A stretch of 18,064 nt of DNA from Nitrospinota bacterium (GTDB lineage Bacteria > Nitrospinota > Nitrospinia > JACRGO01), in the NCBI GenBank assembly GCA_016212295.1, contig JACRGO010000034.1, positions 1-18,064 on the forward strand. Direction: 5' to 3'. Of this stretch, positions 3,317-17,805 are shown piece after piece. The notes under the pieces are model-generated. The model did not search any database, was not told the DNA's origin, and was given only the letters and a program-made list of their open reading frames with translations. The position numbers were made by a program, and so were the translations under genes. The number at the start of each line of letters is the position of its first letter. Position 1 is the stretch's first letter.

Positions 3317-3431
3317 ATTTTTTTCAGCTTTCAGTATTCAGCAAAGGCATGGCAAAACTAAAAAAACAAATCCCTGGCCGCTGATTGCTGTGCGCTGAAA
3401 GCTTTTTGTGGTTTTTCGCGTCAAATTCCAC

Positions 3432-3437
3432 TATAAT
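3432..3437 (+). promoter_or_regulatory. Perfect TATAAT -10 hexamer upstream of the secreted-protein gene; no convincing -35
   Basis: TATAAT 35 bp upstream of the ATG at 3472. Implies the inserted gene may have its own promoter. Confidence 0.25.
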
Positions 3438-3471
3438 TTTTTTGATTTATAAACGGAGAGAAGGAAGAAAG

Positions 3472-4560
3472 ATGAATGCCTTTAATGCATGTACAAAAAA
3501 TATCGGCATTGCCCTTCTTCTTTTCCTGCTGAACCTGGTTTCTTTTATTCCGGCTTGGGCGGAAAATTTCCCGGAGCCAAATCCTCCTCTGGAAGGCCCA
3601 CGGCATCTTGAGAAAAAGAAACCTTTGCTGGAAAGGAGGGCCTTGGGGGCCCCCACAACTGAGTGGACCTACCATAAAAACCAAAAGGGAACGCATCCAA
3701 GCAATCACGAACAGGCCCTTGTATGGCTTATGAACAACGCCAGGAAGGACCCGAAAGCGGAGGGAATTTTTTTAGCCGCCACCACGGATACCGACGTGGC
3801 AAATGCGCGCCAGTATTTTAATGTCAACGCCACGATGCTCAAAAGCGAATTCGCTAAACTTCAGAAAAGGCCGCCAGCGGCCTTTGACATACGCCTTTAC
3901 AATGCCGCGTACGAACATAACAAAATTATCATTAAAAAGGACCAACAAAATCATCATGACCCCACTTGGTCACTTTATGATAAAGCAGGATTTGCCAGAA
4001 GGACCGCTGGACAGAATGTATACGCTTATGGAAAAAGCGCCATTTACCTCCATGCGGGTTGGAACATCGACTGGGGGCCAGACGCCTATGGAAAAACCAA
4101 GGGTGGAATGCAGGGGAGCGACAGCTCCGGGCGGGGCCACCGCTCCAACCTGATGGACCAAACCAAATATTCGGCCAGCTATCCCTTCGCCAACGTTGGA
4201 ATTTCAGTGGAATCCGAAAGCAACTCCGCAACCCAGGTAGGCCCCTTGGTGTCCACGGCCGATTTCGCCAATGCCGATACAAGCAAAGCCAATCACTACA
4301 ATGCCTTTATCGTGGGCACGGTTTGGCGGGACACTAATAAAAACGGCGTTTACGATTCCGGCGAAGGCTTGGGGGACGTCAAGGTTATGCCAAACCAGGG
4401 GACCTTTTGGGCAAAGACCGCGAAAAGCGGCGGATACGCCATTCCCGTGACTTCACCAGGCGATTACAACATCACATTTTCCGGCGGACAGCTCACGGCA
4501 AAAAAAACAAAAAAAACAACCGTGGTTAGTGAAAGCGTGTTGCTCGACTTAACATTGTGA
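3472..4560 (+). CDS. Secreted CAP/SCP (YkwD-like) domain protein with an unrecognised C-terminal Gly/Thr-rich domain
   Basis: N-terminal signal peptide MNAFNACTKNIGIALLLFLLNLVSFIPAWA. HEQALVWLMNNARKDP and GRGHRSNLMD...NVGISV match the CAP/YkwD H-x-x-N-x-x-R and GHRxNIL...GVG motifs. GGAG RBS precedes the start. The ORF-track start at 3385 is an upstream extension. Confidence 0.65.
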   Translation: MNAFNACTKNIGIALLLFLLNLVSFIPAWAENFPEPNPPLEGPRHLEKKKPLLERRALGAPTTEWTYHKNQKGTHPSNHEQALVWLMNNARKDPKAEGIFLAATTDTDVANARQYFNVNATMLKSEFAKLQKRPPAAFDIRLYNAAYEHNKIIIKKDQQNHHDPTWSLYDKAGFARRTAGQNVYAYGKSAIYLHAGWNIDWGPDAYGKTKGGMQGSDSSGRGHRSNLMDQTKYSASYPFANVGISVESESNSATQVGPLVSTADFANADTSKANHYNAFIVGTVWRDTNKNGVYDSGEGLGDVKVMPNQGTFWAKTAKSGGYAIPVTSPGDYNITFSGGQLTAKKTKKTTVVSESVLLDLTL

Positions 4561-5525: not shown

Positions 5526-5546
5526 ATTGACAATTGACGATTGAAC
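5526..5546. repeat. Heptamer tandem array ATTGACA-ATTGACG-ATTGAAC (contains two phased TTGAC -35-like hexamers)
   Basis: Three consecutive 7-mers read directly from the sequence. Confidence 0.7.
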
Positions 5547-5554
5547 CTTAAACA

Positions 5555-5589
5555 TTAAATCTTAAATCTTAAATCTTAAATTTTAAATC
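5555..5589. repeat. Heptamer tandem array (TTAAATC)x5 immediately upstream of the 5594 ORF
   Basis: TTAAATC TTAAATC TTAAATC TTAAATT TTAAATC. Confidence 0.85.
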
Positions 5590-5593
5590 CCTT

Positions 5594-6274
5594 ATGCTGG
5601 CAAACAGAGAAATAAAAACGAGACTGGAAAAGGCTTTCCCTATAAAACAGGCGGTGGCGCTGGCCGATGTTTTTATAGAATTCAAGGGAGACCTTGTCAA
5701 GTCTGGAGATTTCAACGAGCTTAAAAATGTAGTAAAAGAACTTGCCGAGGCTCAGAAGCGGACAGAAGTAAAAATGGGAGAACTTGCCGGCGCTCAGAAG
5801 AGGACAGAAGTAAAAATGGAAGAACTTGCCGAGGCGCAGAAACGGACGGATTATGAACTTGTCCTCTTTCGCCGCACTTTTACCTCTCAGATTGGAGGGC
5901 TTGGGGCGCGATGGGGTATGATGACGGAATCGTCGTTTCGCAACGCCATGGAGGGAATACTGTCAGAAGTTGGGTTCAAGGCCGAGAGGTTCATAGCTAA
6001 AGACAAAAAGGGGACAGTTTTCGGGTATCCGGCGGAAGTGGAGCTTGATGTTGTCGTTAAAAACGGCAAGACCCTGGTCATTGAGATTAAATCCTCGGTT
6101 AGCCGGGCGGACGCGGCCTCCTTTGACAAGAAGGTAAGCTTTTACGAGAAGGAGACACGGCGGAAGGCTAGCAGGAAGATAATTATATCTCCTTATACCG
6201 AGCCCGCGGCCCATGACGCCGCCAAAAGACTGGGGATCGAGGTTTTTACTGATATAAATGACCCGGCTTTGTAA
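5594..6274 (+). CDS. Coiled-coil-repeat plus PD-(D/E)XK-like nuclease-fold protein (DUF3782-like), inserted between fabD and fabG
   Basis: N-terminal 14-aa tandem repeats [14 protein letters not shown] x about 2.6. C-terminal [24 protein letters not shown] fits the D...(D/E)xK restriction-endonuclease-like core. No fab-pathway role. Confidence 0.55.
5738..5850 (+). repeat. In-frame 42-bp tandem repeat (about 2.6 copies) inside the 5594-6274 CDS
   Basis: Units 5738-5779 and 5780-5821 are near identical. The third unit diverges after about 27 nt. Confidence 0.85.
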
Positions 6275-6285
6275 CACAAACCCAC

Positions 6286-6340
6286 AGCGCGACGTGGCCG
6301 CAACCAAAATAAATTTTCGATGCATTCAAACGTTTCATGA
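6286..6340. repeat. Second copy (about 85% identical, one indel) of the 55-bp element seen at 2132-2185. A degraded right-arm remnant may lie at about 6406-6431
   Basis: AGCGCGACGTGGCCGCAACCAAAATAAATTTTCGATGCATTCAAACGTTTCATGA versus copy 1. Both copies lie just after a stop codon and upstream of a fab gene. Confidence 0.75.
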
Positions 6341-6418
6341 AGCCCCAAATTTCAATTGTCAGATAACAAATAAATCTCAATAACCAAAATTACAAAGAAA
6401 CAAAGAAATGAAATTGTT

Positions 6419-7318: not shown

Positions 7319-7331
7319 GATGAGTTGTGAT

Positions 7332-7373
7332 GGTTCAGGGTTCAGGGTTCAGGGTTGAAGGTTGAAGGTTGAA
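7332..7373. repeat. Heptamer array (GGTTCAG)x3-(GGTTGAA)x3
   Basis: Read directly from the sequence. Imperfect inverted partner (AACCCAG)x3 at 7473-7492. Confidence 0.85.
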
Positions 7374-7787: not shown

Positions 7788-9044
7788 GTGAAAGACCAAG
7801 TAAATCAAAGAAGAGTAGTGGTGACCGGGCTCGGCCTGGTGACCCCCCTGGGAATAGGGGTGAAGGAAACGTGGGAAGGAATTTGCGCTGGACGGTCCGG
7901 CATCGGACGCATCACCAAATTCGACCCGACGGATTACTCCTGCCAAATCGCCGGGGAGGTTAAGGGATTCGACCCGACCAATTACATGGACGCCAAGGAG
8001 GCCAGGAAGATGGACCCCTTCATCCATTACGCCATGGTCGCGGGCTCCTTTGCCGTGGAGGATTCCGGCCTCAAAATAACTCCTGAGAACGACACCAGGG
8101 TAGGCGTAAGCATCGGCGTGGGCATGGGCGGCCTTCCGGTTATTGAAAAATACCACGAGGTCGTCCTGGAACGTGGCCCCAGAAAAATCACGCCATTCTT
8201 CATCCCAATGCTTATCGCAAACATGGCGGCCGGCCATCTGTCGATGAAGTTCGGCGCCAAGGGGCCGAACTGTTGCAGCGCCACAGCCTGCGCCACCGGC
8301 ACCCACGCCATGGGCGATTCCTTTGAAATCATCCGCCGCGGCGACGCGGACGTCATGATCGCGGGCGGCGCTGAATCCGTTATCACGAAACTGGGGATCG
8401 GCGGGTTTTGCGCCATGAAGGCCCTGGCCGCGAAATACAACGGCCAGCCGGAAAAGGGAAGCCGCCCCTTTGACAGGGACCGCGACGGGTTTGTTATGGG
8501 TGAAGGCTCAGGCGTGATGGTGCTTGAGGAGTTGGAATCGGCCAAACGCAGAGGGGCCAGGATTTACGCGGAAATTGTGGGATACGGAATGAACGCCGAC
8601 GCCTATCACATGACCTTGCCCCCGCCGGAGGGAGAAGGCGCCGCCCGGTGCATGAACCTGGCCCTGAAAAAAGGAAATATCAGGCCGGAAGAGATTGATT
8701 ACATAAACGCCCATGGCACTGGAACAGCCGCGGACGTCCTGGAAACAAAGGCCATAAAGTCCGTCTTCGGCGGCCACGCATACAAGCTGGCGGTCAGCTC
8801 CACCAAGTCAATGACCGGACATCTCCTCGGGGCAGCCGGTGGAATAGAGGGCGTTTTTTCCGTTCTTGCCATTGAAAGGGGAGTCCTTCCCCCGACCATT
8901 AATTTAGAGAACCCCGACCAGGAATGTGACCTGGATTATGTCCCTAACCAATCCAGAAAAAAAGAAATAAATTTCGCACTTTCCAATTCCTTTGGATTCG
9001 GCGGGACCAACGCCTGCGTTATTTTCAAGAAATTTAATTCCTGA
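7788..9044 (+). CDS. fabF: 3-oxoacyl-ACP synthase II (FabF)
   Basis: GTG start abutting the acpP stop. RRVVVTGLGLVTPLG N-terminus. Cys-His-His triad context (ATACATG, HGTGT, GHLLGAAG). Confidence 0.92.
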   Translation: MKDQVNQRRVVVTGLGLVTPLGIGVKETWEGICAGRSGIGRITKFDPTDYSCQIAGEVKGFDPTNYMDAKEARKMDPFIHYAMVAGSFAVEDSGLKITPENDTRVGVSIGVGMGGLPVIEKYHEVVLERGPRKITPFFIPMLIANMAAGHLSMKFGAKGPNCCSATACATGTHAMGDSFEIIRRGDADVMIAGGAESVITKLGIGGFCAMKALAAKYNGQPEKGSRPFDRDRDGFVMGEGSGVMVLEELESAKRRGARIYAEIVGYGMNADAYHMTLPPPEGEGAARCMNLALKKGNIRPEEIDYINAHGTGTAADVLETKAIKSVFGGHAYKLAVSSTKSMTGHLLGAAGGIEGVFSVLAIERGVLPPTINLENPDQECDLDYVPNQSRKKEINFALSNSFGFGGTNACVIFKKFNS

Positions 9045-9861
9045 ATTTATCCAGTTCCCTCGTTGTTTCCTGGGCAATGATTTCCATCAAATCGCTTGAG
9101 ATTTTTGGGACAACTGAAGGGACGCATGGCATTCCGGCTGAGGAATGCTGGAGGGAGACGAACTTTCCCGACGGACACGCCTTGCACGATTCGCAGCGGG
9201 CGAGGATTTTCTTGGGCGGAAGGCCAAGCCCCTCGCCCACTTTCCGCAATTTTTCTATCTGGCCCTGAGACAAGGGATGCAGGTCCCCCAACTGCCTTGC
9301 CGCGTGGGTGATTTGCGCCACGTGCTCGATCCGCTCCAACAGATTATATGCGTCAAACACGGTGGCGCCAACTGTCAGGGACCCATGCCGTTCCAGCATG
9401 ATGGCGTCGAAATCCTTGATGTATTCCTGAATGGACTGCGGCACCTCGTCCGTTGTGGGGGTGGAATATGACGCGGTTGGAATGGATCCCAGTGTGAAGA
9501 CCACCTCCGGCAGCATGCACTTGGCCAGGGAGACTCCAGCCAACGTGAAGGCCACGCAATAGGTGGGATGAGCATGGACCACCGCCATGACGTCCGGCCT
9601 CATCCTGTAGCACTCCAGGTGCATCCTGATTTCAGACGAAGGACCGTATTGGCCGGATATCCGCGCACCCTCCATATCGATCACCACCAGGTCGCGCTCG
9701 TTAATGAAACCCTTATGGAGTTTGGTGGGAGTGGTGAGGACGCGGTTTCTGGGCAGGCGGAGGCTCACGTTGCCGTCGCTGGCCGCGATCCATCCCTTGT
9801 TGTACATCCTGCGGCAGACCTCCACTATGTCTTTTCTATGCTCTTCTTCGTTTTTTATCAT
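9034..9861 (-). CDS. Class II aldolase (FucA/RhaD/adducin-head family) with a C-terminal Cys-rich extension; BMC cargo candidate
   Basis: True start MIKNEEEHRKDIVEVCRRMYNKGW at 9861; the upstream MSLVTRHLSLISV is repeat-derived. HAHP metal-binding context. About 60-aa C-terminal tail with CESCKACPSGK...C and an amphipathic SSDLMEIIAQETTRELDKF. The 3' end overlaps the fabF 3' end convergently by 11 nt. Confidence 0.85.
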   Translation of the reverse strand: MIKNEEEHRKDIVEVCRRMYNKGWIAASDGNVSLRLPRNRVLTTPTKLHKGFINERDLVVIDMEGARISGQYGPSSEIRMHLECYRMRPDVMAVVHAHPTYCVAFTLAGVSLAKCMLPEVVFTLGSIPTASYSTPTTDEVPQSIQEYIKDFDAIMLERHGSLTVGATVFDAYNLLERIEHVAQITHAARQLGDLHPLSQGQIEKLRKVGEGLGLPPKKILARCESCKACPSGKFVSLQHSSAGMPCVPSVVPKISSDLMEIIAQETTRELDKFRN

Positions 9862-9872
9862 GACTGAAATCA

Positions 9873-9928
9873 GTGACAAGTGACGAGTAACAAGTGACAA
9901 GTGACAAGTGGCGAGTAACGAGTAAAAA
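9873..9928. repeat. Heptamer array A: GTGACAA GTGACGA GTAACAA GTGACAA GTGACAA GTGGCGA GTAACGA GTAAAAA
   Basis: Eight consecutive 7-mers. Preceded by TGACTGAAA. Confidence 0.9.
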
Positions 9929-9964
9929 ACGGAAAATGCCCCACTTGATCCATGCCTCTTGACA

Positions 9965-10237: not shown

Positions 10238-10247
10238 TTTTTTCTTA

Positions 10248-10296
10248 GTGACCAGTGACGAGTAACGAGTGATCAGTGGCGAGTAACGAGTGACGA
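10248..10296. repeat. Heptamer array B1 (GTGACCA GTGACGA GTAACGA GTGATCA GTGGCGA GTAACGA GTGACGA)
   Basis: Seven 7-mers. Inverted partner B2 lies 24 bp away. Confidence 0.9.
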
Positions 10297-10320
10297 GTCT
10301 TAGAAGCATAGGTTTTTTAC

Positions 10321-10369
10321 TTGTCACTCGTCACTTGTCACTCGTCACTATTTATTTGTCACTCGTCAC
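10321..10369. repeat. Heptamer array B2 (TTGTCAC TCGTCAC TTGTCAC TCGTCAC TATTTAT TTGTCAC TCGTCAC), inverse of B1. The two form a palindrome of about 120 bp
   Basis: Reverse-complement orientation of B1. It contains the stop codon and last codons (..SSDE*) of the BMC-P gene at 10359-10637. Confidence 0.9.
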
Positions 10370-10637
10370 TGCTCCTTGCGTCTATATTGTCAACAATCCC
10401 GACGATACCGGCGTCTATGGGACTGAAGGTGTCCGGCAGAGTCAGGGCCGCCTCGCGTCCGACCACATAAGAGACGGTCTCGCCGATTCCGGCCTGTTGG
10501 GCGTCCACCATCACAAGAGGCTCTCCCTTGGGTTTTCGCTCGTGGTCCACCGGCTGCACCAGCAGGAGCTTGATTCCCTCCAGGCTTGGATGCTTCACCG
10601 TGGCCACCACCCGTCCTATTACTTTTCCTATGTGCAT
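10359..10637 (-). CDS. BMC vertex protein (EutN/PduN family, BMC-P) copy 2
   Basis: MHIGKVIGRVVATVKHPSLEGIKLLLVQPV. GGAG RBS. C-terminal tail encoded by repeat array B2. Confidence 0.85.
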   Translation of the reverse strand: MHIGKVIGRVVATVKHPSLEGIKLLLVQPVDHERKPKGEPLVMVDAQQAGIGETVSYVVGREAALTLPDTFSPIDAGIVGIVDNIDARSSDE

Positions 10638-10772: not shown

Positions 10773-10994
10773 CTACCGAGCCTTTTGAAAATGTTGCCAT
10801 GCCTCATCCTCCTCTGGACGGTTCCAATCTTCCGCGAGGGCTGTTTCGCTTAACAAGGCTTCCTCATTTACATGAATTAAAGGTTCCTCATCAAGAATCG
10901 TGACTAATGCACGGCAGGATGAAGACAGTTTAATCGGTTCAGACAACTTAATATTGCCTTTTAGATCAATTGTTGCTTCAAGTATGCGGACCAT
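10773..10994 (-). CDS. Small AF2212/AbrB-like, antitoxin-like protein (73 aa), orphan
   Basis: True start MVRILEATIDLKGNIKLSEPIKL...ALVTILDEE with AGGAGG 7 nt upstream; the ORF-track TTG start translates the RBS. C-terminal LSETALAEDWNRPEEDEAW resembles the tails of type II antitoxins that pair with PIN toxins. No toxin gene is adjacent. Confidence 0.4.
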   Translation of the reverse strand: MVRILEATIDLKGNIKLSEPIKLSSSCRALVTILDEEPLIHVNEEALLSETALAEDWNRPEEDEAWQHFQKAR

Positions 10995-11066
10995 ATTAGG
11001 CCTCCTTTTTTTCAAATAAATATGCTTTTATTTAATGAAATCAAATATACACATTTCTTGATAGAG

Positions 11067-11638: not shown

Positions 11639-11672
11639 CACGTTATCAGTTCACGGTTTACGGTTCACGGTT
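11639..11672. repeat. Heptamer array CACGTTA TCAGTT CACGGTT TACGGTT CACGGTT; left boundary of the four-helix-bundle cassette
   Basis: Inverse partner AACCGTG array at 12042-12069. Contains the stop codon of the 11665-12015 gene. Confidence 0.85.
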
Positions 11673-12015
11673 TTTTCAATGAATCATGCAAGGCTTGCAA
11701 CATTTTTGATATGGATTTCAACTCATTAATCAAACCTTTTGCGTCACTGTCGGAAAATACGTTAATTTCCCTTGAAATATAAACTTGTGTCCGCAGTTCC
11801 GCCGCCGAGCCTTTTGCAATGTTTATAAACCTTTGAAAATCTGGAACACTGTTTCTTTCGCACCCTTCCGCGATATTCGATGGAATAGATACGGATGAGC
11901 GCAACATTTGATCTTTCAGCCCATAATCACGGCAATCTTTTAATAATTTATAGAGGGTTACTGTCAGTCTGCAAGATTTTTTCCAAACTTCTAAATTCTC
12001 AAAGGAAGCGCTCAT
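11665..12015 (-). CDS. Four-helix-bundle protein (23S rRNA intervening-sequence protein / Avd-like family, TIGR02436-type), intact copy
   Basis: LEVWKKS...LKDQMLRSSVSIPSNIAEG..R.S..DFQRFINIAKGSAAELRTQVYIS matches the family consensus. Flanked by inverted CACGGTT/AACCGTG heptamer arrays. Confidence 0.85.
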   Translation of the reverse strand: MSASFENLEVWKKSCRLTVTLYKLLKDCRDYGLKDQMLRSSVSIPSNIAEGCERNSVPDFQRFINIAKGSAAELRTQVYISREINVFSDSDAKGLINELKSISKMLQALHDSLKKP

Positions 12016-12041
12016 AACCTTTTTCTATTTTCTGCTTCACC

Positions 12042-12069
12042 AACCGTGAACTGTGAACCGTGAACCGTA
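12042..12069. repeat. Heptamer array AACCGTG AACTGTG AACCGTG AACCGTA; right boundary of the four-helix-bundle cassette
   Basis: Reverse complement of the 11639-11672 array. Confidence 0.85.
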
Positions 12070-12090
12070 AACAATTTTCTTATTTTATGT

Positions 12091-13425: not shown

Positions 13426-13435
13426 TTGAATGATA

Positions 13436-13498
13436 GTGACTGAAAGATAGTGACAAGTGACAAGTGACAAGTGACGAGTGACAAGTAAAAAGTAAAAA
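13436..13498. repeat. Heptamer array C (GTGACTG..GTGACAA x3 GTGACGA GTGACAA GTAAAAA GTAAAAA)
   Basis: Inverted partner D at 13571-13619, 72 bp away. Confidence 0.9.
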
Positions 13499-13570
13499 CT
13501 TATAGCTCTTTGGGCGGACAAAAAAAATCAATGGCCAGGGATCAGTACCGGCTCCTGGATTCTTTTCTAC

Positions 13571-13619
13571 TCGTCACTCGTCACTTGTCACTCGTTACTG
13601 CTTCTCGGTAACTCGTCAC
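13571..13619. repeat. Heptamer array D (TCGTCAC TCGTCAC TTGTCAC TCGTTAC ... TCGTCAC), inverse of C
   Basis: Ends 4 bp from the aldehyde dehydrogenase stop codon. Confidence 0.9.
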
Positions 13620-13623
13620 TGCT

Positions 13624-15114
13624 TCAAACAATTCTAAACCTGTCCTTCAAAGTACAGCGGCGCTCCCTTGTGAAGTGGACGGCGGTGGTCAGGCCCTCTC
13701 CGGTGGGGCTGGCTATGGTGAAGGACGTATACCCTTCCCCGGTGAAGCCCAATCCGGCGTATGAAGGTCCGTTCTTCACGAAGATGGAGGTGTTGATTTC
13801 CCGCGCCATGCGGCTCAGCTTGTCGATGTTTCTGGAGTGCATCACCGCCGTGTGGCCGAACCCGTGCTCCACCTCCTTGGCCAGGTCAATGGCGGCGTCC
13901 GCGTCCTTGACCCTAACCAACGGAATCAAAGGCATGAGAAGTTCCATCTGGACAAAGGGATGGCCGGCGTCCGTCTCGGCGATGATCAACCGGATATCCT
14001 CCCCGACGTTGACGCCGATCTCCTTCAGGATAACCGCCGCGTCCTTTCCCACGAATTTCTTGTTAACCACTCCGTGGGAGCCGTCAACCGGCGGCTCCTG
14101 GATAATAAGCTTCCGCATCTGGCGGATTTGCTGCTGGTTCAACTCGTAGCAGCCGTTTCGCTTGAGGGCGGATTTCAGGGAATCCGCTATTGAGGCCACT
14201 GCTATGATCTCCTTTTCCACTATGCAGACCATGTTGTTGTCGAATGACGCGCCGTTTACTATGTCAACCGCCGCGTTTTCGATGTCCGCTGTCTCGTCCA
14301 CCACCACAGGCGGATTACCTGGTCCGGCGGCGATCACCTTCTTTCCTGAATTCATGGCGGCCTTGACCACCGCGGGTCCGCCGGTGACCACCAATAACCG
14401 TATGCCGGGATGCTCCATGAGTTCCCTGGCCGATTGAATGGTCGGCTCTGATATAGTGGTTATGAGGTCCCTGGGACCGCCCGCCTTGGCTATGGCCCTG
14501 TTGAGGAGATCGACTGAATAAATGGAGATTTTTTTAGCGGTCGGGTGGGCGTTGAACACCACCGCGTTTCCCCCGGCCAGCATGCTCACCGCGTTGTTGA
14601 AGATCGTCGCGAAGGGATTTGTGCATGGGGTGATGGACCCTATGACGCCGTAAGGGGCGCGTTCCACCAACGTGAGTCCGTTATCGCCCGTGTAGCTGAC
14701 TGGTTGCAGTATTTCCAGTCCAGGCGTTTTTTCTATTGACAACCTGTTTTTCAGCGCCTTGTCCTTGACCCGGCCCATGCCTGTCTCTGACACCGCCATC
14801 TCCGCGAGTTTTTGCGCCTCTTCCAGGGCGGTTGATCGCATGGAGGCGATGATCCCGCCACGAAGGGACAAGGGCATACTGCTAAGTTCCGCGAAGGCCT
14901 TCGCGGCGGCAAGGACCGCTGAATTAATATCGCCGAACACTCCAAGCCCCTCGCCCTTGCTTTCCTTAGCGGATGAGGACGGACAGCCGTGAGGCGGATT
15001 GAACGCCGCCTGGGGCTTCGAGGGACCTGGAGCGCTAATGGTCTGCCCGCTCCATATCCTTTCAGCAACCCTTCTCACTATTGAGGCAATCTGGTCTTCT
15101 GTAAGTTGTGTCAT
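13624..15114 (-). CDS. CoA-acylating aldehyde dehydrogenase (PduP/EutE-like BMC core enzyme) with N-terminal encapsulation-peptide-like helix
   Basis: 496 aa. ALDH catalytic region ...MVCIVEKE.../...GEGYTSFTIASPTGEG. N-terminal amphipathic EDQIASIVRRVAERI followed by a Pro/Ser/Gly linker before GVFGDINSAV. Confidence 0.88.
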   Translation of the reverse strand: MTQLTEDQIASIVRRVAERIWSGQTISAPGPSKPQAAFNPPHGCPSSSAKESKGEGLGVFGDINSAVLAAAKAFAELSSMPLSLRGGIIASMRSTALEEAQKLAEMAVSETGMGRVKDKALKNRLSIEKTPGLEILQPVSYTGDNGLTLVERAPYGVIGSITPCTNPFATIFNNAVSMLAGGNAVVFNAHPTAKKISIYSVDLLNRAIAKAGGPRDLITTISEPTIQSARELMEHPGIRLLVVTGGPAVVKAAMNSGKKVIAAGPGNPPVVVDETADIENAAVDIVNGASFDNNMVCIVEKEIIAVASIADSLKSALKRNGCYELNQQQIRQMRKLIIQEPPVDGSHGVVNKKFVGKDAAVILKEIGVNVGEDIRLIIAETDAGHPFVQMELLMPLIPLVRVKDADAAIDLAKEVEHGFGHTAVMHSRNIDKLSRMAREINTSIFVKNGPSYAGLGFTGEGYTSFTIASPTGEGLTTAVHFTRERRCTLKDRFRIV

Positions 15115-15768: not shown

Positions 15769-15839
15769 GGTTCAGGGTTCAGGGTTCAGGGTTCAGAGTT
15801 CCCGGTTGAAAGCTTTGTGGCCTTTGTGCCTTTGTGGTG
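15769..15839. repeat. Heptamer array (GGTTCAG)x4-like followed by the octamer-like repeat CTTTGTGG CCTTTGTG CCTTTGTG in the BMC-T/BMC-H intergenic gap
   Basis: Same GGTTCAG unit as at 7332. Confidence 0.8.
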
Positions 15840-15845
15840 AAAAAA

Positions 15846-16472
15846 TTATTTTTTCTTCAACGCCACTCCCTCCAAACCGGAAAGCGCGGTGATCGCGGCC
15901 TCCGCCGCTGAGTCTATTTCCGATTCCGACCCGGACATATAAAGCCTCCCATAGGCGCCGAAGGGACGCACCTCAACAAGTTTTACATTCGCCGCCTTTT
16001 CCGCCTCGTTCGCGCCGAAGATAACGTATCCGGCAGGCTCAGTCTCCAGTATGAAGAGCGATTCGCCCGGAAGGATCATGGACCCGCTCCGGTTACGATT
16101 GATAAGTTGGCATTGATACGCCTCCATCGCGCGGATGATCTGGTTTGAGACGATGTCCGGCTTGATCCGGTCCGACTCCTTGATCTCCAGGTAGTCCAGG
16201 ATGGACTGTCCCGCCAGCCTCACCTCCCCCTTGTCGTGCTCGTGGACTTCCAATACCCCGTAGGCCCGCTCCACGATCTGGACCGCCGGCTGGACCTTGG
16301 TGGCCTTCAAGGCCACATCCAGGACCTTGTTGATTGCGAGTCCGGGCGCTATTTCAACAAAGAGCGACGCCACTCCAGGCACCGGGAGGAACCCCTTGGC
16401 CGTGGACCCTATATAAGAGGCCAGTTGAGCTTGAAGACTGTCCAGAAAAACATAAGTGCGCAGGGTTATCAT
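15846..16472 (-). CDS. Permuted tandem BMC-domain shell protein (BMC-T, PduB/EutL-like)
   Basis: 208 aa with two permuted-BMC halves ([19 protein letters not shown]... and ...[30 protein letters not shown]...) paralleling the EutL architecture. GGAGG RBS. Confidence 0.7.
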
Positions 16473-16491: not shown

Positions 16492-16528
16492 AGTGACTAT
16501 AAAACCAGTGACCAGTGACGAGTAATTA
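16492..16528. repeat. Heptamer array E (GTGACTA...GTGACCA GTGACGA GTAATTA)
   Basis: Overlaps the stop codon of the 16526-16807 gene. Inverse partner F at 16827-16847. Confidence 0.8.
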
Positions 16529-16807
16529 GTTTGTGCTCCTCAAGGAGCGTTGTAAGCCAATAATCATTTTTGAAATTTCGTCCAGTTCTTCCAATAAACT
16601 ATTTTCAATTCGCGACTCCAGGAGTTGTAAATTTTTACTTATGATGATTTGTGTTTCCAGTTCCGCTATATTAGATGGAATGGATACGGCCGCTCGCCGC
16701 ATTTGGGATAGCAGGCCAAATTTCTCTTCCGAAGGAAAGGAAGCAATCTGTTCCACAAAGCTGATTGACCTTTTCCATACCTCCAGGCGCTTATGCGGCT
16801 TTCCCAT
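16526..16807 (-). CDS. Four-helix-bundle protein (Avd-like / 23S-IVS family), second copy with an internal deletion of about 20 aa; possibly degenerate
   Basis: MGKPHKRLEVWKRS...FGLLSQMRRAAVSIPSNIAE|LETQIIIS lacks the G..R.S..DF..F..IA.GS segment present in the copy at 11665-12015. True ATG at 16807 with GGAGGG RBS; the track start at 16840 is repeat-derived. Confidence 0.65.
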   Translation of the reverse strand: MGKPHKRLEVWKRSISFVEQIASFPSEEKFGLLSQMRRAAVSIPSNIAELETQIIISKNLQLLESRIENSLLEELDEISKMIIGLQRSLRSTN

Positions 16808-16826
16808 GAAATCCCTCCCTTTTAAC

Positions 16827-16847
16827 TCGTCACTTGTCACTCGTCAC
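16827..16847. repeat. Heptamer array F (TCGTCAC TTGTCAC TCGTCAC), inverse of E
   Basis: Read directly from the sequence. Confidence 0.85.
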
Positions 16848-16853
16848 TATCTT

Positions 16854-17723
16854 CTAATACTGTTTCGCCACGATCGCGTCCTCTATCTTCCTCGTGTTGG
16901 CCAGGGTGCGCTGCCGGTTCGTCATGCCGATCGTTATATACAGCACGTCAATGATGCTTGACTGCGCGATCCTCGAGGCAAGGGCCTCGCTCCGGTATTT
17001 GGTCTCCTTGGAAGAGGTCACGAGGACCACGTCCGCTACCTTTGCCAGGGGCGAAAGGGAATTATTAGTGATTGCTATCGCCTTGACCCCGTTTTTCCTG
17101 GCGACTTCTATTGTGTCTATGGGGTCCCTGGTGCTCCCGGAATGGGAGATGGCAAGGACTAGGTCGCCCTTTCTCAATAGCGCGGCCTCCATCATCTGGA
17201 GGTGGCTGTCGTTTTGATAGGAGCACCAAAGCCCAAGCCTCAGGAATTTATTAAAGGCGTCAAAAAGGATGGGGGTGGAGGTCCCGACCCCGATTATCAG
17301 AATTTTTTTCGCCTTGCTCAACAGCTTCACGGCTTCCCCGACGGCCTCCGGCTTCAGCGCCTCCAGGGTGCTTTGCAGGGTCTCGATGTTGGCGGAAAAG
17401 ACCTTGCGGATGATGGTGGCCGTCCCGTCCCTTTCGCTCACGTCCTCATGTATGGCGTGGTGGATGGGAGATACAAGGTCCCGCGCCAAATTAATCTTCA
17501 GGTCCTGAAAGCCCCTGTATCCCATGGTCCTGCAGAAACGGATCACGGTCGCCTCGCTGGCCCCGGCGCCGATTGCCACTTCGCTCACCGACTGGTCAAG
17601 AACGCCCTGCGCGTTGCCGAGCGCGTATTCCGCCACTTTTTTCTCCGCCGAGTGAAGTGACGGCAGCATGCCCCTCAGTCTGGCAAGACAATTTTCCCTT
17701 GGGGCCGCTTGGGTCTTCAGCAT
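16854..17723 (-). CDS. RpiR/MurR-family transcriptional regulator (HTH plus SIS sugar-phosphate-binding domain)
   Basis: LHSAEKKVAEYAL...SEATVIRFCRTMGYRGFQDLK is an RpiR-type HTH. The SIS domain shows IGVGTS...ISHSGST. ATG at 17723 preferred; the track GTG at 17738 overlaps the -10 box. Confidence 0.85.
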   Translation of the reverse strand: MLKTQAAPRENCLARLRGMLPSLHSAEKKVAEYALGNAQGVLDQSVSEVAIGAGASEATVIRFCRTMGYRGFQDLKINLARDLVSPIHHAIHEDVSERDGTATIIRKVFSANIETLQSTLEALKPEAVGEAVKLLSKAKKILIIGVGTSTPILFDAFNKFLRLGLWCSYQNDSHLQMMEAALLRKGDLVLAISHSGSTRDPIDTIEVARKNGVKAIAITNNSLSPLAKVADVVLVTSSKETKYRSEALASRIAQSSIIDVLYITIGMTNRQRTLANTRKIEDAIVAKQY

Positions 17724-17729
17724 GATGAA

Positions 17730-17757
17730 ATTATACACGGAAAAAATTTCTTGTCAA
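17730..17757 (-). promoter_or_regulatory. Strong sigma70-like promoter TTGACA-16-TATAAT for the RpiR gene; the ATG lies 6 nt after the -10, so the mRNA is probably leaderless
   Basis: - strand TTGACA corresponds to 17752-17757 and TATAAT to 17730-17735. Confidence 0.55.
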
Positions 17758-17764
17758 GTTTTTT

Positions 17765-17805
17765 TTCATGAAATTTTTTTTCATGAAGTAATATTTCATC
17801 ATGAA
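17765..17805. promoter_or_regulatory. Three TTCATGAA-type palindromes (17765-17772, 17780-17787, 17795-17805) between divergent promoters; candidate operator set
   Basis: Two perfect 8-bp palindromes, each preceded by a T8 run and spaced 15 bp apart, plus TTCATCATGAA. A similar TTCATCATG overlaps the RpiR start codon. Confidence 0.4.

Follow-up and report, generated by a model that had tools for sequence, protein, structure and literature searches.

A shortened four-helix-bundle gene in a Nitrospinota microcompartment operon is probably a decaying copy of an IVS-like cassette

The short four-helix-bundle (4HB) gene located between rpiR and the first shell gene of a Nitrospinota microcompartment operon is probably a damaged, decaying copy of an IVS-like 4HB cassette. 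Two in-frame deletions have shortened it, while the inverted arrays of heptamer repeats on either side of it are still predicted to pair. The window, that is, the whole stretch of 18,064 nt that was analysed (contig JACRGO010000034.1), carries the genes plsX-fabH-fabD-fabG-acpP-fabF on its plus strand and the microcompartment operon, with rpiR as its first gene, on its minus strand, as assigned from the ORF listing and Pfam. The order of the operon is rpiR, the short 4HB gene, the 208-aa BMC shell gene, BMC-H, EutN, aldehyde dehydrogenase, a PduS/RnfC-like gene, an intact 4HB gene (11665-12015), tandem-BMC, two EutN genes and a class II aldolase (Table 1). A syntenic contig, L001, has the order RpiR, a full-length 4HB gene (posA), BMC208, BMC-H, EutN, aldehyde dehydrogenase, a further 4HB gene (posB, which encodes P0002), PduS, a third 4HB gene (posC), BMC-T, VapB, PIN, two EutN genes and aldolase. 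The genes around the short 4HB gene are 87-90% identical between the window and L001 at the nucleotide level.

Table 1. Coordinates of the features of the window discussed in the text
Feature	Position	Strand	Basis and remarks
Short four-helix-bundle ORF (PF05635/TIGR02436), 93 aa, ATG start	16526..16807	-	ORF listing, Pfam, TIGR02436
Ribosome-binding site GGAGGG	16814..16819	-	6 nt upstream of ATG; conserved in L001 posB
69-nt deletion junction, lone retained copy of direct repeat ATAGCGGAA (Ile47-Ala48-Glu49)	16661..16669	-	DNA alignment
Second, 12-nt in-frame deletion junction, between Ile21 and Ala22 (relatives: TATAAGACAACN = YKTT)	16744..16745	-	Alignments
Upstream (5' in transcript) heptamer arm, (AGTGACN)n	16825..16848	-	Starts 6 nt past rpiR stop codon
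Downstream (3') heptamer arm	16504..16523	-	Predicted to close stem around ORF
Intact 4HB cassette of a different subfamily; ORF 11665-12015 (116 aa)	11642..12072	-	Inverted (GTTCACG)n arms 11642-11672 and 12042-12072
'Empty' inverted AGTGACN arm pair, ~80-nt loop unrelated to 4HB	13435..13624	-	Repeat scans, L001 synteny
rpiR (HTH_6 + SIS)	16854..17723	-	First gene of operon; ATG 17721-17723 is the likely start; ORF listing opens at GTG 17738
First shell gene (CsoS1D_N-like + BMC domain, 208 aa)	15846..16472	-	RBS and start form the original rpiR-proximal junction
Perfect promoter TTGACA-16-TATAAT, sigma-70-type	17730..17757	-	Ends 6 nt before rpiR ATG; conserved in L001
Conserved TTCATGA repeats, candidate operator	17759-17799	-	Precede TTGACA-16-TATAAT; conserved in L001

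Outside these features, a 391-aa ORF with a hydrophobic N-terminus was found within the fatty-acid synthesis operon, in the fabH-fabD interval (3385-4560; sub-threshold Pfam matches only, SdrD_B-like and CarboxypepD_reg). Between fabD and fabG a PD-(D/E)XK nuclease-family gene (5594-6274; PF07788 and DUF3782) is inserted, with an in-frame tandem repeat of 42 nt x 2.7 (5736-5847) and with heptamer arrays immediately upstream (5526-5589). A direct repeat of ~54 nt, the copies of which are 80-90% identical, occurs downstream of plsX (2132-2185) and downstream of the PD-(D/E)XK gene (6286-6340). In L001, a VapB-PIN toxin-antitoxin pair occupies the interval from tandem-BMC to EutN (8891-9648); the 80-aa ORF at the equal position in the window (10773-11015) was rejected as a counterpart of VapB, with no BLASTP similarity and no Pfam match.

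The short ORF encodes a protein that agrees in every residue with database protein P0001, whose annotation is 'four helix bundle protein [Nitrospinae bacterium]' and which has one member on one contig, so that this deletion is seen on a single contig. Scores of 67.2 bits for PF05635 (cut-off 33.8) and 59.2 bits for TIGR02436 (cut-off 24) place it in the family. The profile match is split in two, at profile positions 1-48 and about 70-106, and positions of about 49-70 of the ~106-position domain are absent; continuous cover was seen in 79 of 80 genome homologues. The ATG at 16805-16807 is the likely start, since the N-terminus MGKPHKRL that follows from it matches those of the homologues. The sequence-only reading had let the gene extend to 16847; this coordinate, like a GTG at 16840, falls within the flanking heptamer repeat and the gene is accordingly shorter (Table 1). 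The GGAGGG ribosome-binding site, the unbroken frame and the location between rpiR and the first shell gene were all correctly recognized in that reading. It had also taken the gene for a second copy of the intact 4HB gene. With 32% identity between the two window proteins (BLASTP, E 1e-14, a single 23-residue gap) and unlike flanking heptamers, the intact gene is not the source of the short one, and recent duplication of the window's intact 4HB gene is rejected. By sequence comparison the intact gene belongs to a different subfamily and the true parents are P0002/P0005-like genes. PADLOC returned no match for any 4HB protein and lent no support to a known defence system.

Full-length genes that are 85-88% identical in nucleotides to the short gene are present at posA and posB of L001. 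DNA alignment with both revealed a clean 69-nt gap (23 codons) together with a clean 12-nt gap (4 codons), a total loss of 27 codons. The larger gap confirms, in protein and in DNA alignment, the internal in-frame deletion already suspected; the smaller, which takes away 'YKTT' at the end of helix 1, had been overlooked. In posB the 69 nt are bounded at both ends by ATAGCGGA, and in posA the bound is GCGGAA. These repeats are identical to ATAGCGGAA over 8 nt in posB and 6 nt in posA, and it is from these relatives (8/9 and 6/9 nt) that we infer the 9-nt repeat of the immediate parent. As the DNA of the relatives has the junction repeat on either side of the lost segment, the proposal of a deletion between AE(L) microhomologies holds at the DNA level. 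The alignments establish both deletions, and replication slippage between ATAGCGGAA copies would fit the loss of the 69 nt. Since both repeat copies encode Ile-Ala-Glu in equal phase, a slippage deletion of this kind is in frame by construction and the intact frame is therefore no evidence of selection. For the 12-nt loss the microhomology is at most 1 nt, and the chance of staying in frame was 1 in 3. The short copy, which is in position A, was slightly nearer to posB (87.8%) than to posA (84.6%) of L001, posA and posB being 87.5% identical. In this comparison of three sequences, the affinity to posB could reflect gene conversion among the cassettes, or a duplication that took place close to the divergence of the two genomes.

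The consequences for the protein were followed on the full-length relative P0002. Its AlphaFold model (pLDDT 96, pTM 0.90) has helices at residues 9-25, 36-55, 60-86 and 92-118; P0002 matches PDB 2GSC by sequence (E 6e-30), and the model superposes on 2GSC with TM 0.93-0.96 and an rmsd of about 1 A, as well as on 2RLD and DGR Avd. The two deletions remove P0002 residues 22-25, at the end of helix 1, and 52-74, which run from the last part of helix 2 through the turn into helix 3 (15 residues of it), so that the earlier placement of the loss in the helix-3 region was roughly right. Among the lost residues, G54, R57, F63, L67, Q71 and S73 (P0002 numbering) are invariant or at least 90% conserved in 119 homologues. 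The AlphaFold (AF2) model of the short protein showed three helices at pLDDT 77 and pTM 0.62, with confidence lowest near the junction, and fitted 2GSC less well, at TMt 0.66 and an rmsd of 3.1 A. Judging from these models and the lost residues, the short protein most likely does not work as a four-helix bundle any more.

If short forms lacking this segment were a common natural subtype, the gene would have to be read differently. All of the 119 database homologues closest to the short protein have lengths of 115-142 aa, and short forms were found in 0/119 close homologues, 0/80 genome loci (one of which is truncated differently) and 0/118 neighbours of P0270; they are rare, and the subtype explanation falls away. 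An exhaustive search with the short protein gave about 10 short single-stretch matches among the best 150 of 5,322; this search favours gapless matches, and the samples of 119, 80 and 118 are the unbiased ones. In alignment, exactly the same 23-residue gap is found in P0122, P0126, P0142/P0270 and P0213, while P0156 has a gap of 22 residues and P0139 and P0215 have gaps of 18. The short forms are 46-54% identical to each other, which places the 23-residue loss in no fewer than four further, unrelated lineages. The genes closest to them are of full length, namely P0325 (116 aa) for P0270, and P0271 and P0273 (125 aa, about 97% nucleotide identity) for P0122. We therefore regard the deletions as recurrent, independent and young, and not as the mark of a short-protein lineage. 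In the parent P0271 the 69 nt that were lost are flanked on either side by a perfect 9-nt repeat, GTCGCAGAA, and on these alignments the site is a deletion hotspot created by two conserved (I/V)-A-E triplets. The second, 12-nt deletion occurs in the window copy only and is lacking in the other short forms. P0270 lies between imuB and dnaE2 and is unchanged on 12 contigs from several samples. In P0122 (L135, 271-642) the stop codon is also lost (TAG to TGG), and the frame reads into the downstream heptamer arm; the 24-residue, repeat-encoded tail that results adds to the signs of decay in copies of this kind. That the short form could be the ancestral state was rejected, close and distant relatives all being long.

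The rpiR-shell junction was compared among metagenome relatives of the shell gene, of which 40 were collected. In nine of those that have rpiR upstream (L008-L012, L014-L016, L020) about 9-27 nt separate the rpiR stop from the shell-gene ATG, with an RBS only and no 4HB gene, which bears out the view that the 4HB gene was inserted there. In L013 this junction is occupied by a hairpin insert of 183 nt that is unrelated to the cassette. The closest outgroup, L007 (82% nucleotide identity, the window and L001 being 88% identical), likewise has no 4HB gene, and its spacer of 84 nt contains degenerate heptamers; these heptamers resemble a second, (GGTTCAG)n type, of which the window has arrays at 7328-7373 (fabG-acpP spacer) and 15769-15807 (spacer of the first two shell genes). 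Both the window and L001 have the cassette, with identical boundaries, which are the rpiR stop plus 6 nt and ...AGTCACTTAAAATGGAGGATTAAACAATG, and in L001 the gene is full length. The insertion must therefore have been present in their common ancestor, before the deletions arose, and any regulatory effect must belong to the cassette and not to the deletion.

The sequence-only reading had placed the gene where the promoter and operator of the BMC genes would be expected and suggested that its insertion had rewired regulation. The ancestral junction of 9-27 nt holds only an RBS, and the promoter lies upstream of rpiR, where a TTGACA-16-TATAAT promoter and TTCATGA(A) repeats are conserved in L001 (~1170-1250) while the remainder of the spacer has diverged. 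Judged from this conservation, the promoter and the repeats are likely the promoter and operator of the whole operon, and the distance to the rpiR ATG (Table 1) suggests that the rpiR mRNA may be leaderless. Promoter-like sites inside the operon are at background (8, compared with 5.4 +/- 2.4), and a candidate internal promoter in the 3' arm (16514-16486) was rejected as weak (9/12), of background frequency and, by eye, not conserved in L001. An Rfam scan of the whole window gave no match, and thus no riboswitch or known RNA at the rpiR-shell junction. With a strong promoter upstream of rpiR and internal sites at background, the regulatory interpretation of the insertion is unsupported.

The arms that flank the short gene are part of a wider pattern. 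The segments 16504-16523 and 16825-16844 are inverted and 90% complementary and are paired in both the MFE and the centroid fold, giving a predicted stem of ~20 bp around the ORF (fold z = -1.95); for the arms of the intact cassette a stem of ~38 bp is predicted (fold z = -4.3). The empty arm pair lies at the aldehyde dehydrogenase/PduS-like junction, where L001 has the full-length 4HB gene posB (6025-6387). Tandem Repeats Finder (TRF) reported period-7 arrays at 16504-16523, at 16825-16848 and in more than 10 other spacers, and the pattern GTGACNAGTGAC had 23 matches compared with 0.1 expected. One of the EutN genes (9965-~10240) is also enclosed by inverted heptamer arms, of 60 nt and 85% complementary (9871-9930 and 10312-10371); the arm at 10312-10371 has an alternative pairing with the nearby array 10247-10298, across a 20-nt loop. 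Beyond the window and L001, a matching arm architecture surrounds 4HB genes in chemotaxis and EPS operons on contigs of other Nitrospinae and of Thermodesulfobacteriota, and 4HB loci bracketed by inverted heptamers were noted at 11642-12072 of the window and at L002-L006, L047-L126, L127 and L133-L135. The heptamers vary among contigs (AGTGACN, AATGCGG, ATTTTAG) and their type differs among 4HB subfamilies. Orthologous junctions differ in occupancy, a 4HB gene being present in the CheA-CheB spacer of L002 and absent from that of L003.

Across 80 4HB loci from many phyla, inverted flanking repeats exceeded the maximum of 30 shuffles at 61. Period-7 repeats were found in 32% of the 110-nt flanks of these loci versus 1.9% of control segments, with no enrichment at lags 4-6 and 9-11, and among the loci with both flanks clearly periodic the downstream unit was the reverse complement of the upstream unit in 12/20. 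At the PduS-like/tandem-BMC junction, the window (11665-12015) and L001 (posC, 7871-8224) have 4HB genes of unrelated subfamilies. No BLASTP match was obtained between them, their arm heptamers are GTTCACG and ATTTTAG, respectively, and orthology was rejected; the posC site is therefore uninformative on the short copy. From the sequences, the occurrence of unrelated 4HB genes at this junction suggests independent insertions or replacement of one cassette by another at a single site. The literature on PF05635/S23 proteins and heptamer repeats yielded only work on DGR/Avd, on the Coxiella IVS and on TAACTGA repeats (PMC4679880); no link between 4HB genes and heptamer arms was found there.

The sequence of events that we propose starts from a cassette made of a PF05635 gene of ~120 codons between two inverted arrays of 7-nt tandem repeats, inserted into the rpiR-shell junction of ~9-27 nt in the common ancestor of the window Nitrospinae and L001 genomes. 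Then, in the window lineage only, 69 nt were lost, presumably by slippage between in-phase ATAGCGGAA copies, and a separate second event removed 12 nt. The product lacks the helix 2-helix 3 turn and near-invariant residues and is predicted, with lower confidence, to be a three-helix protein. The RNA-level part of the cassette persists, both arms still being predicted to pair. Operon transcription would still start at the promoter that precedes rpiR, and the shell gene retains its own RBS. The operon holds a graded series of such elements, with one gene intact (11665-12015), one internally deleted (16526-16807) and one site with arms only (13435-13624). Of the codon changes that only the short copy has, 9 are synonymous and 3 non-synonymous; the corresponding ratios of its full-length relatives are 11:4 and 8:2. 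As its ratio equals theirs, the short copy has spent most of its branch under constraint. The ratio makes no relaxed selection visible yet, and fits either recent deletions or a short protein that may still be constrained.

The earlier reading had offered a decaying cassette and a shortened variant as alternatives, and the loss of core residues and the lack of a short-form clade make decay the better option and the variant the less favoured one. That the short form is a functional, selected three-helix variant, for example a modulator or antagonist of full-length paralogues assembling into pentamers, appears improbable to us. Its unbroken frame with ATG and RBS, the 9:3 ratio on its own branch, the identical deletion in at least five lineages, the persistence of P0270 on 12 contigs, by which such forms are at least tolerated, and a model that is still helical (pTM 0.62) would all agree with selection. 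However, in-phase slippage is in frame by construction and protein databases show in-frame survivors only, so that neither frame retention nor recurrence needs selection. Moreover, the nearest relatives of every short form are full length and no diversified short-form clade exists, the most conserved residues of the family are removed, and the window copy bears an extra deletion not shared by the other short forms. It is very improbable that the deletion is an artefact of metagenome assembly or of the sampled population. The short protein is on a single contig, its flanks are repeat-rich and about 87% identical paralogues are present in the lineage, but De Bruijn assembly does not merge repeats of 9 nt, the flanks on both sides are collinear with L001, and identical deletions occur in independent assemblies of unrelated cassettes.

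A different question is whether the cassette acts at the regulatory or RNA level by uncoupling rpiR from the shell genes, through RNase III-type cleavage of the stem or a new promoter, in which case the state of the 4HB protein would be irrelevant. We consider this possible, if rather unlikely. It draws on the predicted ~20-bp stem around the ORF and the ~38-bp stem of the intact cassette (z = -4.3), on the RNase III excision of the homologous rRNA IVS (PMC4990558), on the arms that remain where the gene has gone and on the weak promoter-like site in the 3' arm. Yet the rpiR-shell junction had no ancestral promoter or operator, the weak -35 is by eye not conserved in L001, promoter-like sites in the operon are at background level, and the fold z of the short cassette is just -1.95. 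Such a role is compatible with decay of the short gene, as it concerns the cassette and not the deletion.

Among known systems, the ORF-bearing IVS of 23S rRNA, in which a PF05635 protein is encoded in the loop of an RNase III-cleaved stem (PMC4990558), comes closest. In both cases terminal inverted repeats form a stem with a PF05635 ORF in its loop, for the short cassette a predicted stem (arms 90% complementary and paired in the MFE and centroid folds). The IVS of Coxiella burnetii is described as a selfish element whose S23p ORF is in reductive evolution (PMC4990558), which parallels the decay of the short gene. Unlike the IVS, the window element is not in helix 25 or 45 of 23S rRNA but in an mRNA intergenic junction of a metabolic operon (it lies between two protein-coding genes and has no Rfam match); its arms are tandem heptamer arrays, and RNase III excision is known for the IVS whereas here the stem is a predicted one. 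XCC0516 (PDB 2GSC) and BT_0352 (PDB 2RLD) are stand-alone four-helix bundles of the 'S23 ribosomal protein family' whose fold P0002 shares according to its model; the window protein is without 27 residues of that fold, and the solved proteins have no known function. The PDB entries 2GSC, 2RLD and 4DWL each contain five chains (homo-oligomer). Avd, the DGR accessory protein (PDB 4DWL, 8UB7), shares the fold and is a distant family relation of P0002, which scored 31.6 bits with PF22296 bAvd, below the Pfam cut-off of 40, at a Foldseek TM of about 0.7-0.8. Of DGR features, the window has no reverse transcriptase, its large ORFs all being assigned to fab, BMC or inserted genes, and the repeat search found no TR/VR-like long repeats. 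The STRR of cyanobacteria and the TAACTGA repeats of Beggiatoaceae are intergenic heptamer tandem repeats (PMC4679880). They resemble the window arrays as tandem 7-nt units in operon spacers that form lineage-specific families with no known function, and differ from them in that the window arrays are inverted pairs that bracket a 4HB gene or an empty loop; PMC4679880 makes no mention of 4HB/S23 proteins or intervening sequences alongside its heptamer repeats.

In summary, the short gene alone is a minor event, the ordinary decay of an abundant small gene, and the control region of the operon, misplaced at the short 4HB gene in the earlier reading, lies upstream of rpiR. The hotspot is reproducible in the family, and 'four helix bundle proteins' of ~93-100 aa would be damaged genes and not a subtype. 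More interesting than the deletion is a cassette architecture that rRNA IVS ORFs have in common with 4HB genes embedded in the operons of many phyla. We tentatively put forward a broader reading, which as a whole may well prove wrong, in which PF05635 4HB genes are generally the cargo of an undescribed class of IVS-like cassettes, with ~120 codons between inverted, subfamily-specific heptamer arrays, that insert into tight operon junctions across many bacterial phyla and then follow a stereotyped path of decay, from recurrent 69-bp (I/V)-A-E slippage through gene loss to 'empty' heptamer hairpins. If this were true, the window would show all three stages of decay in one operon, and many unexplained STRR-like heptamer arrays would be footprints or landing pads of 4HB cassettes. 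The arms, together with presence and absence at orthologous junctions, could then open the roles of 4HB proteins and of heptamer repeats to experiment.
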